Below, piece by piece: positions 25,151-63,880 of a DNA stretch of 64,000 nucleotides; within the stretch, counting starts at the first letter, position 1, and each line of letters starts with the position of its first letter. The stretch covers positions 98,984 to 162,983 of the forward strand of contig CAWEPG010000002.1 in assembly GCA_963810905.1 (NCBI GenBank), given 5' to 3'. Position numbers and translations under genes: made by a program. This stretch comes from an uncultured Acidimicrobiia bacterium. GTDB lineage: Bacteria > Acidobacteriota > Terriglobia > Versatilivoradales > Versatilivoraceae. The notes beneath the pieces were generated by a model, which saw nothing but the letters and a program-made list of their open reading frames with translations, did not search any database and was not told where the DNA came from.

Positions 25151-26138
25151 TCAAGACTTAAGGTAGTTGAAACTTTCGATCACATCAAATGGGGTACGGA
25201 CGTTTCCGATGGACTCCCCAATTTGTTCGATTTTTGCGATATTTAAGTTCCCTAGTGCTTCTTCAGCCTTTTGCAGATAGTCAATCTTCTCTGGATTGAG
25301 ACCGACAATGCGAGTGCAGGTCGCATCGACAGACACCGGATCGTTGCCAAATACCAACACGCCCACGTGTTTGGGTTTTCCTTGGATGGGTCCATTCCCT
25401 TCCATGCCCACTATGCCATCGACAATGACAAAGTGAGGGCGAACGGTGCTGTTGATGTCGAGAATGCTCTCGTTGATTCCGTGCCAGTGCAAAAAGTTCT
25501 TGGGCCATCCATATTTCACACCGGGGACGATGCCAAACAAGTTTTTCATTGCAAGTGTCATTCCTGCCCAATGATGAGTTTTTAACTTTGGCATCGAAAC
25601 AAGGATGTCGGCATTGAGCACTGACTCTGCGAAATACAACGAATCGATACCCATGAAACTGCTCTGAAGCGGGAGTCGGCGAATGTTGTCCAGATTGAGA
25701 TCGACAAAGGTAGCCTGCGTCTCTTTCAGATAGGGAAACAAACCTGAGGCAACGAGCAAACCATCCGTATCACGCCGGTGCCCTGGTCCTTCCCCAACCA
25801 GGACTTCTTTTGCCCCAAGCATTCGAAACGCTTCAATCGTCGCGCCAATCACCGCTGGATGCGTGTTAATCACATTGTCTCGTTCATATTCGACGAGGTT
25901 CGGTTTTAACAGAACTCTCTTGTTTACCACTTCGAGGGAAAAAGCCTTAATCCCGTTCAGGATCGAGCCTAACCAAATCCTTTGTATAACTTTCTGCTTT
26001 AAGAATAGCTACTTTGGATTGATGGGATTTGCAATAAGCGCCCGTAGCCCACCGACCTTGTTGAGAACAGGCCGTGGTAAAGGACGCAATACTACATGCT
26101 GTTGCCGTCTTAAGAAATTGGCGACGATTGAAACTCAT
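25151..26138 (-). CDS. DUF362-domain protein with Tat/lipoprotein signal; +1 frameshift near 25968
   Basis: MSFNRRQFLK...TACS signal; VLLKPN, VGEGPG and MPKLKTH...MKNLFG motifs. The two ORFs join after removing one G. Confidence 0.85.
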
Positions 26139-55604: not shown

Positions 55605-55689
55605 TGGTGCGAAAGAGGGGAGTTGAACCCCTACCCCTTGCGGGACTGGATCCTAAGTCCAGCGCGTCTGCCAATTCCGCCACTTTCGC
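55605..55689 (-). tRNA. tRNA-Leu (anticodon TAG), CCA encoded
   Basis: GCGAAAG acceptor stem, GGCGGAATTGGCAGAC D-arm, CTGGA-CTTAGGA-TCCAG anticodon arm, long variable arm, GGTTCAACTCC T-arm. Confidence 0.97.
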
Positions 55690-58518: not shown

Positions 58519-58863
58519 TTAGTGAGGATGGACGTAAAAATTTTTCTGAATAATGGCTTCGGCAATCTTCTTACTACTAACGTGATAGGTCCCTTCGTCA
58601 ATCGCCTTTGTCAACCGACTAATCCTGTCTAACCGAAGCTCCGGCAGATTGTTTATTAATTGCCGGATGCGGATAAACTCGCGTTGCTTGGGGATGGTGA
58701 GTCCTTCGAGATTGTATGATTGATTTGTCATTTTCCCGTTTGACCGATGGTTTGTGGAAGCCGTTTCGTTGGATCTTCTTTTCACTTTTTCTTCTTTACT
58801 ATTTCTTTCGCTCGACATTTCGACCTCTTCGTGGAATTCCATAAATATCATCGGCAGCCCCAC
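58519..58863 (-). CDS. flgM: FlgM-like anti-sigma-28 factor
   Basis: C-terminal LPELRLDRISRLTKAIDEGTYHVSSKKIAEAII matches the FlgM sigma-binding helix pattern; start uncertain. Confidence 0.7.
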   Translation of the reverse strand: MGLPMIFMEFHEEVEMSSERNSKEEKVKRRSNETASTNHRSNGKMTNQSYNLEGLTIPKQREFIRIRQLINNLPELRLDRISRLTKAIDEGTYHVSSKKIAEAIIQKNFYVHPH

Positions 58864-59025: not shown

Positions 59026-59388
59026 TCAATCATCACTCCCTCCCCTCCATTTCAGCCATTCGCCGGTCCGGTTTGGAAGCTTCAGTAGGGAGCACAATCC
59101 TGCCAAATTGAAGAACTCGTACTGACTAATCGCAATCACAAGTTTCCTGTGTTCGAGGCTGAGATCAGCGAGATGCTTCTCGCCAATCCTCTCGCTAATT
59201 GTGAGATTACGACCCAAAACTGATAATTCCAAATATCGATACCCATCGAGATATTTGTGAAGGAGGGTTGGGAACACCGTCTCGAGAACATGATGTTTGT
59301 CCTCAATAATCTCTTCCTGTAGGTCTAACTTTTGTCTGATGCCTTTAAGTCGATTGTTGTGATACTTCCAACGCGAGGATACACCCAA
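59026..59388 (-). CDS. Hypothetical protein
   Basis: 120-aa ORF in an otherwise empty interval; TTG start; no recognised motif. Confidence 0.4.
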   Translation of the reverse strand: MGVSSRWKYHNNRLKGIRQKLDLQEEIIEDKHHVLETVFPTLLHKYLDGYRYLELSVLGRNLTISERIGEKHLADLSLEHRKLVIAISQYEFFNLAGLCSLLKLPNRTGEWLKWRGGSDD

Positions 59389-59695
59389 ACTGGGCCTCTG
59401 TTAGACTAACCACCCCATTGTCGGACCGGCTGGCTATGCAATTCATTCGCTGACGCCTATAAAATCCAAAAAAAATCCAGTACTTCCTGCGGGCTGATCC
59501 CCGCTTTTACATTGCCAAGGCTGACAAAGTATTATAGTTTTTCTCTATCCCCGATCCTATTCGGAAAGGTCGTGTACCTCGAACTCGGGATTTCCCAGAG
59601 GCCTGGATCCGTTAGCGATTGAGAGTTATCCGAAAGCAAATTTGACTCATATTTGCCGCAGGAATTCTTTAACAAGGGATGATGGTGAGAGAGAA

Positions 59696-59720: not shown

Positions 59721-59790
59721 AATGAAAATAACTTGTGTGCTTGGGAATGACCTGCAGTAGTCCCCAAGAGAAACGTGAAAGGAGAGTTAC

Positions 59791-60171
59791 ATGGATCGAA
59801 GAAAATTTAACAAGGTCATGGGCGCAGCCGTGGCCGGTATGGTCGCCGGCTCCAAATTAACAGGCCGGAAAAGCCAGCTCCTAGCTGATGAGAAAGCAGC
59901 AAAACACGTTTGCAAAGGCCACAATGAATGTAAAGGGCAAGGGAACTGCGCCAGTGGAGATAATGGTTGCGACGGCCAAAATTCCTGCAAAGGGAAGGGA
60001 GGCTGTGCGACCGTCGCGAAGCATGATTGCAAGGGGATGAACGAATGCAAAGGTCAGGGTGGTTGCAAAAGCGGTGATAATGGCTGCGCCGGCAAGAACT
60101 CCTGTAAGGGCAAAGGTGGCTGTCAGGTGCCCTTGAAGGCTGCAACAGAAACCAAGAAGAAAAGCTCTTAG
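59791..60171 (+). CDS. Cys-rich RiPP precursor (BufA2/bufferin-like) with twin-arginine leader
   Basis: MDRRKF leader; four CxGxNxCKGxGxC units (12 Cys); AAGGAG RBS; directly upstream of DUF692. Confidence 0.85.
   Translation: MDRRKFNKVMGAAVAGMVAGSKLTGRKSQLLADEKAAKHVCKGHNECKGQGNCASGDNGCDGQNSCKGKGGCATVAKHDCKGMNECKGQGGCKSGDNGCAGKNSCKGKGGCQVPLKAATETKKKSS
59902..60135 (+). repeat. Two tandem 117-bp (39-aa) repeats in the precursor
   Basis: KHVCKGHNECKGQGNCASGDNGCDGQNSCKGKGGCATVA / KHDCKGMNECKGQGGCKSGDNGCAGKNSCKGKGGCQVPL. Confidence 0.9.
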
Positions 60172-60262
60172 GCTGTCAGAGTTTTCTCAGAAAGGAAACT
60201 TTGGGCACTACTCCTCCCTGAAAGTCTTGTCAGGCAGGAGAGGCCCACAGGAGAAAGCGATC

Positions 60263-61123
60263 ATGGCAAAAAATCGTTGGAATCTTCCGGACCTTGGGTT
60301 TGGAATCGGCTTGCGCACTGTTCACTATGGGACCATTCTAGCCAACCATCCTCCAGTCGATTGGTTTGAAATCTTATCAGAAAACTATATGGACACCGGG
60401 GGCCGGCCACTCTACGTTCTCGACCAGGTGGCCGAACGCTATCCTGTCGTGCTTCATGGAGTGTCCATGTCGGTTGGAAGTACGGACCCGTTGAACATGG
60501 ATTTCCTCTTCAAACTGAAAGCTTTGGCTGACCGGACACAAGCCCGCTGGATTTCGGACCATCTCTGCTGGACCGGAGTCAGCGGACTCAACGTTCATGA
60601 TCTGCTGCCAATGCCCTATACCGATGAGTCCTTGCGCTACACGATCTCGCGGGTGAAGACAATTTCAGATATTCTGGAACGCCCCTTGGTTCTCGAAAAT
60701 CCTTCCACATATTTGGAATTCGGGACATCGACTTGGACAGAAGTGGATTTTCTCTGTGCTTTGGCAGAAGAGGCTGATTGCGGGATTCTTCTGGATGTCA
60801 ATAACGTCTATGTCAGTTCGTTCAACCACGGACTCGACCCCAACCAGTTCATTGATCGAGTCCCTCCCGACCGAGTCGTCCAGTATCATTTAGCAGGGCA
60901 TACTCACAAGGGGACACACATTCTGGATACTCACAGTGATCATGTTATCGACGCGGTCTGGGAGCTTTATCGACGTTCCTGCCAGTTGACGGGCGGTGTT
61001 GCCACACTATTGGAGTGGGACGAAAAGATTCCCAGTTTTGAAGTGGTTCATGCAGAAGCTCTGAAGGCAAGAAAATATCGCGGCTTGCCAGAGGTAGAGC
61101 GATCGAGAGCCTATGGCACCTAA
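60263..61123 (+). CDS. DUF692 multinuclear non-heme iron oxidase (MNIO, BufB/HvfB/MbnB family)
   Basis: HGVSMSVG, WISDHLCW, LENPSTY, LLDVNNVYV, YHLAGH, LDTH, LLEWD. Confidence 0.95.
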   Translation: MAKNRWNLPDLGFGIGLRTVHYGTILANHPPVDWFEILSENYMDTGGRPLYVLDQVAERYPVVLHGVSMSVGSTDPLNMDFLFKLKALADRTQARWISDHLCWTGVSGLNVHDLLPMPYTDESLRYTISRVKTISDILERPLVLENPSTYLEFGTSTWTEVDFLCALAEEADCGILLDVNNVYVSSFNHGLDPNQFIDRVPPDRVVQYHLAGHTHKGTHILDTHSDHVIDAVWELYRRSCQLTGGVATLLEWDEKIPSFEVVHAEALKARKYRGLPEVERSRAYGT

Positions 61124-61943
61124 AGTCAATCTGAAAAAAACTCAACACTGGATGCAGACGGTCATTATGCATCCCGGAACCGACCAGCAGGCTGTAGCGG
61201 CAAGAAAGTCTCAGGCTCTCGTTCCAAAACAACAATTCCCACATTTGGTCCTTCCGTCCAGGACACTGGATTCTTTTCAGCGTATCGGCATCTATCGGGA
61301 TATGTATCTGGCACGGCTTCGAGAGGCCCTCGCCTCGGACTACCCTGCCCTGCTGGACTACTTGGGAGATGAGGCATTCACCCAACTCGTGGCTGGCTAT
61401 GTTCAAAAATTTCCGTCTCAAAGCTATACGCTGAGTCGCTTGGGGGATCGTCTGCCTATTTTCATCCGATCTCTCCGCAGTTTGCCTCGCCGTGAATTTC
61501 TCTACGACTTAGCGCGGCTTGAGCTTGCCCTGAGCGAAGTTTTTGATGCACCAGAATCCCCAGTATTAGAACCAAAGGCAATCGCGAATGTATCGCAAGA
61601 AGCCTGGGAGACAGTTCGGCTGAAACCGATTGAAGCCTTTCGGTTGCTGGCGTTTCATTATCCAGTCAATGCCTATCTGCAGTCAGTTCGAGACAAGGCA
61701 CCTCATCCCAATATGCGGCCTAAAAATAATTGGGCGGTGATCTTTCGGAATCGCTATAAACTCAGAAGATTGGATTTGACCCTCCAAGCGCACGACTTGC
61801 TGCAATCTTTGGCCTCCGGCAAACCATTGGGAAAGGCGCTCTCCTTCAGTTTGAGCAGGAATCCCAGTAAGGTCAGTGAGGTCCAACTCTTTTCGTGGTT
61901 TCGTGATTGGGTAGCCAATGGACTCTTTCAGTCCCTTGAGTAG
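61113..61943 (+). CDS. DUF2063-type MNIO partner protein (BufC/HvfC-like)
   Basis: RIGIYRDMYLARLREALASDYPAL, YVQKFPSQS...LGDRLP; overlaps the DUF692 stop. Confidence 0.88.
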   Translation: MAPKVNLKKTQHWMQTVIMHPGTDQQAVAARKSQALVPKQQFPHLVLPSRTLDSFQRIGIYRDMYLARLREALASDYPALLDYLGDEAFTQLVAGYVQKFPSQSYTLSRLGDRLPIFIRSLRSLPRREFLYDLARLELALSEVFDAPESPVLEPKAIANVSQEAWETVRLKPIEAFRLLAFHYPVNAYLQSVRDKAPHPNMRPKNNWAVIFRNRYKLRRLDLTLQAHDLLQSLASGKPLGKALSFSLSRNPSKVSEVQLFSWFRDWVANGLFQSLE

Positions 61944-62935
61944 CACCGGCTGTCTCTTAAAGGAAACTGCTTGAGAGTTCGATCCTTTGTGTCGGCCGCG
62001 AACCAATTCCACCAGATTGATTCGTGCCAGACTCATCGACGAACAATAGTAGGTTTACTTCCTCGCACCAGTTCTCTCGCCCCAGAACGCTTCGGCGTCA
62101 TGTCTTGCTGTTTCTCACTAGGGGTCAGCTTATTTTCACATTCCAGTAGAAACCCCAGCGATCAATAAACGTGGAAAATGCGTTTAAGGTGAAGAAGGAC
62201 ATAATATGAAGAAATGCCTGACACATTTAAGTCAGCCATTTAGTTGACCTTCGAAATCCAGGAAATGGAGCGACTAAAATAGGGCTGGCAAAAACATTAG
62301 ATTCCTGGAGAAGAGTCCCGTCAGGCTGCATTTCATAAACACGGTGACGTATCTTAGTGTGCGAGACGCGTGGGGGCACGCGGCCTAGAGAGATATAGGC
62401 AGGGGCACCCGACCCGGCGTTAATGCCGTTGAATATCTGAAATGGAGTACATAAGTACCCAGTACGCTCATTTGAACATTTAAAGTTAGTTTGTCTGCTT
62501 GCCTTTTAAGTGAGGGTGCGAATGGAATCAATCTGCCAAGCTTAGCCAACTTCTTTCCTTTGCACCCAAAGTTATTTTCGGTTTTTTCTGAGATTCGGCT
62601 TCAATTAGTGACCTTGCAATGGATTCTATCTAGTTGATGTATTAAGACATACGAGCAATCTCTTATAAAGGGTACTAATTGAGCGGTTTAGATCTGAATT
62701 CAATGGTTGGGCGATTGCATATGAAACCAGGAATTCCTAATGTGGGGTCCAGATCCCAGGTTGCCTTCGAAAGTCGGATGTTCTTTGTCTTAGGTTTCCG
62801 CATGGAACATCTTTTCGACTTGCATTTTTAGTTGTAGAATTAACGGAATAATTTTCCTGATGAAAAATAGTTACAAGCTAGCGAATTATGTTAATGGAAT
62901 ATGTACTACCTGAGAATTATTTGGGGGGTGGAAAG

Positions 62936-63880
62936 ATGACTAGAAATTCGTCTGGAAGTGACCGTAAGAGAGAGCGTGGTGCAATTCTTTATTTGGTTGC
63001 AGCAAGCCTATTTGTATTGATTGGATTTCTAGGTCTCGCTATCGATTTAGGACACATGTACAACAACAAGGGCCAGCTTCAAAATATGGCGGACGCCGGC
63101 GCCCTTTCCGGAGCAACGGCGTTGAATGGCACATCTGCTGGCATTCAGCTGGCGGTGGATCGAGCTAGAGATTTGAATAGCCGCCTCAATAACAAGACCG
63201 AGTTCAATACTCAAAACATTACCATGGCGGAAGCTAATATTACATTTTCCGATCAACTCAACGGCACCTACGTGGATAAGGCCACTGCGCAAGGCAATGC
63301 AGCAAACATAAGATTCGTAAGAGTAGTGATTCCACCACAACAAACCGATATTGTCTTTGCAAAGTTGGTTCCGGGAATTCCTGCCTTCTTAAACTTTGGG
63401 GCGGAGGCTGTTGCCGGCCAGTCTCCTCAGACTCTTGCATCCAGCCCGCAATCCCGGGTTTGTAACGGGCTCGACCCTTTCAGTCCTCAAGCACTCGATC
63501 CTAGCGATCTCAATAATTTCGGATACTCAGGTTGGTTCCTTTTACTCAATGAGGCTGTCACCAGGAGACAGTCGACAATACCTGTGACAGACCTTGGTTA
63601 CACAAACAGTCTTACAGGTAATTTTGGTTTTGCTGACCCTAATGGTTGTGGCAATGGTATGCCATGTCTTGAAGACTCTATTATTAATGGCTCTAAAAAC
63701 AATTGCGTTTCAATTGGCCCCACTCTCCCGAATGTTTGTGGAAAAGCGGGAAAACCCGTTCCTGTGGCTCTGCAGACGAGATTTGACCAAGACAGCGTCA
63801 CAACCGATCCTTTACCGTACAGCCAGTACATCACTTTGACTACAAATTATAGGAGGATCATACGTGACCTCAATTCATGA
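62936..63880 (+). CDS. TadG-like pilus-associated protein (probably continues beyond 63880 through indels)
   Basis: RERGAILYLVAASLFVLIGFLGLAIDLGHMY...LQNMADAGALSGA pseudopilin-like N-terminus. Confidence 0.8.
   Translation: MTRNSSGSDRKRERGAILYLVAASLFVLIGFLGLAIDLGHMYNNKGQLQNMADAGALSGATALNGTSAGIQLAVDRARDLNSRLNNKTEFNTQNITMAEANITFSDQLNGTYVDKATAQGNAANIRFVRVVIPPQQTDIVFAKLVPGIPAFLNFGAEAVAGQSPQTLASSPQSRVCNGLDPFSPQALDPSDLNNFGYSGWFLLLNEAVTRRQSTIPVTDLGYTNSLTGNFGFADPNGCGNGMPCLEDSIINGSKNNCVSIGPTLPNVCGKAGKPVPVALQTRFDQDSVTTDPLPYSQYITLTTNYRRIIRDLNS

Follow-up and report, generated by a model that had tools for sequence, protein, structure and literature searches.

What does a cell make from a short open reading frame (ORF) with twelve cysteines that is followed directly by genes for a DUF692 enzyme and a DUF2063 protein? 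The question is raised by a three-gene locus at positions 59791-61943 of a 64,000-nucleotide stretch of contig CAWEPG010000002.1 (assembly GCA_963810905.1, from an uncultured bacterium); this whole 64-kb stretch is called the window here. By its profile matches, the locus is a bufABC operon of the BufA2 bufferin family (Buf_6/12Cys, 'Cys-Lys captophorin'), in which bufA encodes the precursor of a peptide made on ribosomes and modified after translation (RiPP), bufB its MNIO (DUF692) maturase and bufC a DUF2063 partner protein. By analogy with characterised bufferins, it is likely that the operon is functional and that its product, carrying thiooxazoles installed by BufB and BufC, is exported and acts as a periplasmic copper chelator.

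Bufferins were defined in 2024 (PNAS; PMC11626156). They have since been counted among the 'captophorins', a grouping of such products in which BufA2 precursors are of the 'Cys-Lys' kind (ACS Chem Biol 2026; PMC13097082). The layout of a short ORF with six conserved cysteines, a DUF692 gene and a DUF2063 gene was noted in 2021 in Antarctic soil metagenomes (PMC8692599). Described Buf2 precursors are 51-367 residues long, with six cysteines in 90% and 12 cysteines in the remainder, the latter interpreted as duplicated 6-Cys domains (Microb Genom 2025; PMC12452194).

A bufABC operon of the BufA2 family

The three genes are co-oriented and tightly packed on the forward strand (Table 1), with an 11-nt overlap of bufB and bufC. 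ATG 59791 is the earliest possible start of bufA, because in-frame stop codons stand just upstream. The start of bufB is preceded by GGAG at 60250-60253; an alternative start at TTG 60227 is unsupported, relatives aligning from residue 1-4 of the ATG form. The first-pass annotation had placed precursor, DUF692 and DUF2063 genes in one operon and had taken this for an MNIO RiPP operon making a Cys-rich, probably metal-binding peptide. Both statements hold: the ORFs lie where they were described, their family matches are far beyond chance, and the BufA2, BufB and DUF2063 cut-offs are all passed. The exact 126-aa BufA is missing from a collection of 15 billion proteins in which BufB and BufC of the same locus are present; bufA may have gone uncalled in the deposited annotation.

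BufA scores 70.5 bits against NF050166 Cu_RiPP_BufA2 (curated cut-off 60, E=1e-19) in three matched stretches. It has no match in Pfam, so no PF10048/DUF2282, and no EGKCG motif. BufB reaches 349.1 bits against NF050167 MNIO_BufB (curated cut-off 310) and 353 bits against PF05114 (E=9e-106), and stays under the cut-offs of the HvfB, ApyH, MbnB and ChrH models. BufC matches PF09836 (DUF2063) with 65.1 bits (cut-off 27.2, E=7e-18). It is also akin to HvfC, yet scores only 45 bits against an HvfC model cut-off of 142. Current NCBI profile models would already place both the precursor and the MNIO enzyme in these families.

The closest characterised system is Bufferin 2 of Caulobacter vibrioides (bufA2B2C2, CCNA_02999-03001), whose NCBIfam equivalog models are the ones matched above cut-off by precursor and enzyme. 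Both are three-gene operons without DoxX that encode a Cys-Lys-rich core behind a signal-like N-terminus and a DUF2063 partner. They differ in that the Caulobacter precursor has one 6-Cys module and a predicted Sec (general secretory) signal, whereas BufA has two modules (12 Cys) and a signal of twin-arginine type. In addition, no SigF/NrsF-type regulator adjoins the present cluster, its host is Acidobacteriota-like, and its product is a predicted one. Bufferin 1, the product of the gig operon (bufABCD, with a DUF2282 precursor), appears analogous in its maturation by MNIO and DUF2063 proteins, in the conversion of cysteine to 5-thiooxazole and in being a small periplasmic copper-binding protein. 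Its operons, however, usually include DoxX and often sigma/anti-sigma genes, and its precursors have four conserved cysteines; BufA lacks a DUF2282 match and the window lacks DoxX.

The first-pass annotation had presented the cluster as an uncharacterised, unusual member of its kind. The cluster is a genuine MNIO cluster, but its novelty was overstated: the family cut-offs are passed, 12-Cys forms make up about 10% of Buf2 precursors, and absence of DoxX is usual. Since twelve cysteines, repeated units and a missing DoxX all fall within the described range, this is an ordinary member of a large known family. With it, a widespread family of copper-defence RiPPs gains an Acidobacteriota-like example from sediment, wetland and soil.

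A precursor of two six-cysteine modules

BufA contains exactly twelve cysteines (residues 41, 47, 53, 60, 66, 72, 80, 86, 92, 99, 105 and 111). A motif scan bears out the earlier count of 12 cysteines in four CxGxNxCKGxGxC units: the motif matches four times in BufA and, over all six reading frames of the window, has no further copy. The units form two pairs, each a 6-Cys module (Table 1); the two modules share 76% identity in protein and 67% in DNA, and at third codon positions only 40%. It follows that the duplication is an old one kept by selection, neither recent nor an artefact of assembly.

In an alignment of 69 homologues, ten of the twelve cysteine columns are invariant, and the other two, C53 and C60, are conserved to at least 90%. 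When BufA and its 120 nearest cluster representatives are taken together, 86 of the 121 proteins have exactly this two-module layout. Variants of it occur (L003, L004, P0061, P0069, P0074 and others): in 10-Cys forms both central cysteines of module 1 are replaced (CKGQGGGPKGVAGKNSC), some forms carry extra Cys-rich tails at the C-terminus, and one precursor (P0007) has three modules and 18 cysteines.

Predicted maturation by BufB and BufC

The solved structure closest to BufB is 3BWW (E=2e-53); none related by sequence to BufA or BufC was found. Alignments to 3BWW and to MbnB structures place H65, H100, E145, D178, N181, H209, D222, H224 and E251 of BufB at the metal-binding positions of MbnB and DUF692 enzymes. 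All nine residues are present, and D253 aligns with the Asp proposed as catalytic base, in keeping with the earlier description of the iron-ligand motifs as intact. D253 is followed by a Glu (E254). In Cys-Lys MNIOs this position holds an Asp that is modelled as contacting the Lys following the substrate Cys (PMC13097082), and an acidic residue there counts for a Cys-Lys-type reading of BufB. Among relatives with CK-rich precursors the position is Asp or Glu in some (L001, L003, L004, L006, L009, L011) and Ala or Gly in others (for example L002, L010, L068).

MNIOs with a DUF2063-type partner are argued to install 5-thiooxazoles broadly (PMC13097082). In Buf2 of C. vibrioides, Cys I and Cys VI are unmodified and probably form a disulfide, and the four central cysteines each lose 4.03 Da as 5-thiooxazoles; the modified peptide absorbs near 305 nm, is copper-induced and is copper-protective (PMC11626156). 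By homology with Buf2 and Buf1, maturation here would begin in the cytoplasm, where BufB, dependent on iron and O2, and BufC, presenting the precursor, would oxidise BufA cysteines to 5-thiooxazoles at -4.03 Da each. If the Buf2 rule holds for each module, the first and last cysteines would form a disulfide and the four central ones would be converted, giving 8 thiooxazoles and 2 disulfides in total, a shift of about -36 Da. The modified peptide would then be exported, on a signal that looks Tat-like (twin-arginine translocation) rather than Sec, with cleavage probably after Ala32, and a Gly/Lys/Cys-rich product of ∼94 residues would stay in the periplasm, chelate copper and buffer copper stress.

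The product structure had been called unpredictable from sequence. Its chemistry is partly predictable by analogy with the relatives, as 5-thiooxazoles probably on the four central cysteines of each module. Bufferins with two modules and 12 Cys appear not to have been studied by experiment so far, and this cluster or a close relative could serve to ask how many cysteines are converted, and how many copper ions bound, per module.

A putative export signal of the twin-arginine type

The N-terminus of BufA reads M-D-R-R-K-F-N-K, followed by a Gly/Ala-rich, weakly hydrophobic h-region (VMGAAVAGMVAGS) and a basic c-region, KLTGRK. This combination of a twin-arginine consensus with low hydrophobicity in the h-region and basic residues in the c-region is a hallmark of Tat rather than Sec substrates. 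Cleavage is predicted between LLA and DEK, probably after Ala32, because homologues show sites of the form AxA followed by D/E.

The signal is shared. In the 69-sequence alignment, conservation of R3 and R4 is at least 90%, and an RR-x-F motif with an uncharged h-region is found in 110 of the 120 nearest cluster representatives. At 50% clustering, RR-type signals make up ∼45% of the best 150 representatives, the remainder being Sec-like or lipoprotein-like, and signal type is independent of cysteine number. Another protein of the window, encoded near 26129 on the reverse strand, also bears a canonical Tat motif, NRRQFLK (MSFNRRQFLKTATACSIASFTTACSQ), and possibly a lipobox; it lies in the area of ORFs 25151-25930/26216-27202; the organism therefore probably uses the Tat pathway.

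Bufferin signal peptides have been described as Sec-type (PMC11626156, PMC12452194), and the words Tat and twin-arginine are absent from the main text of both papers. A search of the open literature for bufferins paired with Tat or twin-arginine gave nothing relevant, and the supplementary SignalP tables of the bufferin papers may already record Tat predictions. Judged by its motifs, the Tat-like signal would be the sole aspect of this locus that goes beyond the descriptions found.

Tentatively, and with slightly more doubt than trust, we propose that a large BufA2 branch including this BufA is exported by Tat and not by Sec, and that the two-module form carries up to eight thiooxazoles and binds more than one copper ion per peptide. 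Neither Tat routing nor the copper load of two modules is discussed in the main text of the bufferin papers. If the proposal is right, an M-x-R-R-x-F-x-K signal would keep the precursor in the cytoplasm until MNIO modification, perhaps until folding, and such peptides would be Tat-routed RiPP metallophores. The conserved twin-arginine signal raises a testable question for the BufA2 family: how cytoplasmic modification is coordinated with export.

Weighing the copper-chelator reading

Several points weigh against the reading of the operon as a source of a periplasmic copper chelator. The cluster is known here from its genes. An AlphaFold2 model of BufA, built on the 69-sequence alignment, is uninformative (mean predicted local distance difference test score, pLDDT, 48; predicted template modelling score, pTM, 0.17). 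Cys I-VI of C. vibrioides BufA2 span residues 24-50, a shorter span than that of a BufA module, which makes the prediction of eight converted cysteines among twelve uncertain. Metatranscriptome contigs from soil and sediment that match bufA at ∼96% identity speak for the reading, yet they stem from relatives, with almost none over bufB or bufC, and are unusable quantitatively. Finally, the immediate neighbours of the cluster, the part of the window that was scanned for such genes, include no recognisable gene for copper resistance or copper regulation.

The last point can also be turned towards a different function for the same biosynthesis, since no copper-efflux or copper-sensing gene is recognised beside the cluster: the product might acquire or deliver copper in the manner of a chalkophore, bind another soft metal (Au, Hg, Ag, Zn) or have a redox role. 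Homologous operons first became known as gold-induced genes (PMC11626156), and the one Buf2 studied is a 6-Cys form. Against this, Cu induces buf2 in C. vibrioides whereas Fe, Zn and Mn do not (PMC11626156), and every characterised partner-dependent MNIO product of the group (bufferins, oxazolin, fontiphorin, bulbicupramide as well as gonophorin) is copper-associated (PMC13097082), so that another job for the peptide is unlikely.

The chemistry could differ instead, with an oxazolone-thioamide as in methanobactin in place of the 5-thiooxazole. Oxazolin and MovA were first assigned in this way, and the isomers are hard to distinguish, but re-analysis favours the 5-thiooxazole for MNIOs with a DUF2063-type partner, and the partner-dependent group does not show the 340/390 nm absorbance typical of methanobactin (PMC13097082). 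The methanobactin system (MbnABC) would be analogous in the MNIO fold, the metal-binding positions and the conversion of cysteine to a copper-binding heterocycle. It differs in its short leader-peptide precursor, its oxazolone-thioamide chemistry and its secreted chalkophore; the partner here is DUF2063 and not MbnC, and BufB scores only 46.8 bits against the MbnB model TIGR04159 (cut-off 325). An oxazolone-thioamide product is very improbable. Further analogues, again by likeness of parts, would be oxazolin (HvfABC of Haemophilus influenzae), fontiphorin and gonophorin, the 'Lys-Cys' EGKCG-repeat captophorins, which combine repeat-Cys precursors with an MNIO and a DUF2063-type partner and bind copper. 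Their repeat is EGKCG, whereas that of BufA is NxCKG (Cys-Lys); BufB reaches 253 bits against an HvfB cut-off of 360, and FonBC failed to process Cys-Lys motifs (PMC13097082).

That BufA is an unmodified metallothionein-like or disulfide-rich periplasmic protein, with the MNIO and DUF2063 proteins acting on some other substrate, is scarcely credible: bufferin precursor genes that stand by themselves, with no MNIO gene beside them, are reported (PMC12452194) and direct thiolate coordination was raised as an option in 2021 (PMC8692599), but the order precursor-MNIO-DUF2063 is tight, down to the overlap of bufB and bufC, and conserved across many phyla, and modification of Buf2 has been shown experimentally (PMC11626156).

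The bufA-bufB spacer and expression

The bufA-bufB spacer of 91 nt folds into two hairpins (Table 1) with a z-score of -2.8, and none of 200 shuffles folds as well. The stem-loop at 60178-60202 reported in the first-pass annotation is real, lying inside the 12-bp hairpin 1. As a conserved regulatory element it was rejected: hairpin 1 is lost in an 84%-identical relative (L081), in which the equivalent of hairpin 2 is kept and is stronger (-22.4 kcal/mol, z -5.4). The spacers of two more distant relatives (L001 and L002) also form strong hairpins, without sequence conservation. Neither hairpin is a canonical terminator, because no T-run follows either, and an intrinsic terminator between bufA and bufB was rejected on the same ground. 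The hairpins probably raise the ratio of precursor to enzyme transcript, which is only a reasonable inference from general RiPP operon logic.

Upstream of bufA, a sigma-70-like promoter candidate (Table 1) has hexamers that are largely kept in L081; such sites are no more numerous in the region than in shuffles. Comparison with L081 in search of an operator for an ECF-type (extracytoplasmic function) sigma factor or a metal regulator was uninformative because the two are too similar: DNA identity is 84% across the region they share, and mean column identity 87% in the alignment of upstream sequence. The buf cluster has neither a sigma/anti-sigma pair nor a metal regulator beside it. Sigma/anti-sigma genes go with Buf1 clusters, not with Buf2 clusters (PMC12452194). 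In one close relative, with a precursor 80% identical to BufA, genes for an ECF sigma factor and a zf-HC2 anti-sigma factor stand just upstream in the same orientation (L083:310-1760), possibly as a regulator pair that is absent from the window. Searches of Rfam over the cluster and its surroundings gave nothing at gathering scores; a Proteo-phage-1 match on the opposite strand (23 bits against 42, E=0.5) is below threshold and is taken as chance.

DoxX and the genomic neighbourhood

A hidden Markov model built from the Pfam-confirmed DoxX genes of six relatives gives no match in any of the six reading frames across the whole window (best E-value 1.7), which agrees with the earlier statement that no DoxX/BufD membrane partner follows the cluster. 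A decayed DoxX gene within the ∼0.95 kb behind bufC was considered and discarded, as no frame there matches the model and the small ORFs have no Pfam match. Among the 77 related loci with bufC downstream of bufB, a Pfam-confirmed DoxX follows bufC in only six. The buf2 operon of C. vibrioides consists of bufA2, bufB2 and bufC2 with no bufD (DoxX), and DoxX is dispensable for the maturation and function of Buf1 (PMC11626156). Absence of DoxX is the norm for the Buf2 subfamily.

Synteny with L081 stops at 61931. In the gap that follows (61944-62887) neither strand has an ORF longer than 65 aa, there is no Rfam match, and its GC content drops to 0.39-0.45; a new gene set begins beyond it. On the other side, the region of the FlgM-like gene and the 120-aa ORF is syntenic in L081; the FlgM-like gene is divergent from bufA and probably unrelated to the buf cluster.

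Table 1. Features of the buf cluster and of its surroundings, in window positions
Feature	Position	Strand	Details
bufA	59791-60171	+	126-aa precursor, BufA2-family (Buf_6/12Cys, 'Cys-Lys' captophorin), 12 Cys
Ribosome-binding site of bufA	59780-59784	+	AGGAG, 6 nt 5' of start codon, read from sequence
Signal peptide, BufA residues 1-32	59791-59886	+	Tat-like, by motif
6-Cys module 1 (C41-C72)	59911-60006	+	CKGHNECKGQGNC-ASGDNG-CDGQNSCKGKGGC
6-Cys module 2 (C80-C111)	60028-60123	+	CKGMNECKGQGGC-KSGDNG-CAGKNSCKGKGGC
Hairpin 1, 12 bp	60176-60204	+	-11.3 kcal/mol, z -2.86
Hairpin 2	60208-60242	+	-15.7 kcal/mol
bufB	60263-61123	+	286-aa MNIO (DUF692) bufferin maturase
bufC	61113-61943	+	276-aa DUF2063 partner protein, type-1 (N-terminal DUF2063 domain)
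Sigma-70-like promoter candidate	59506-59535	+	TTTACA-18-TATTAT, 10/12 consensus matches, weak
FlgM-like anti-sigma-28 factor	58519-58863	-	PF04316, 39.5 bits; just under TIGR03824 cut-off
120-aa ORF preceding FlgM-like gene	59026-59388	-	Unassigned; divergent from bufA
TadE/TadG-like pilus-assembly protein, first of new downstream gene set	62888-63880, 63877-end	+	PF13400
tRNA-Leu (anticodon TAG)	55605-55689	-	

Relatives and distribution

BufA has at least 6963 homologues in a collection clustered at 90%; at 50% clustering there are 1583 representatives, 257 of them with E<=1e-10. The five nearest relatives of BufB (73-78% identity) come from metagenome-assembled genomes of Bryobacteraceae, Bryobacterales, Acidobacteria and Ca. 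Marinacidobacterales, which fits the earlier assignment to the Acidobacteriota, an assignment based here on one gene. In the closest loci (L081, L082, L083, L085 and L086) the bufA-bufB-bufC cassette is kept, the flanking genes differ, and DoxX is present in none of the five; more widely, 77 of 80 related loci have bufC as the gene immediately following bufB. A three-gene cassette kept amid varying flanks counts for the reading as a bufferin operon.

In a relative (L085/L086:1-5477) the buf cluster is adjoined by a ZorA-like/EH_Signature/SNF2-Mrr gene set, a Zorya-type defence system. BufB-like MNIOs of 55-67% identity also stand beside other Cys-rich precursor types, in Planctomycetota and Thermoanaerobaculia (L013-L037) and in Bacteroidota, Alphaproteobacteria and Pyrinomonadaceae (L031, L036, L044-L052, L059-L076). 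Precursors of one of these types have ∼150 aa and combine HVCRGLNxCKG motifs with an RR signal and a helical tail at the C-terminus; those of another are 200-500 aa long with LHxCMGLNxCxG motifs, in some cases with a long N-terminal domain.

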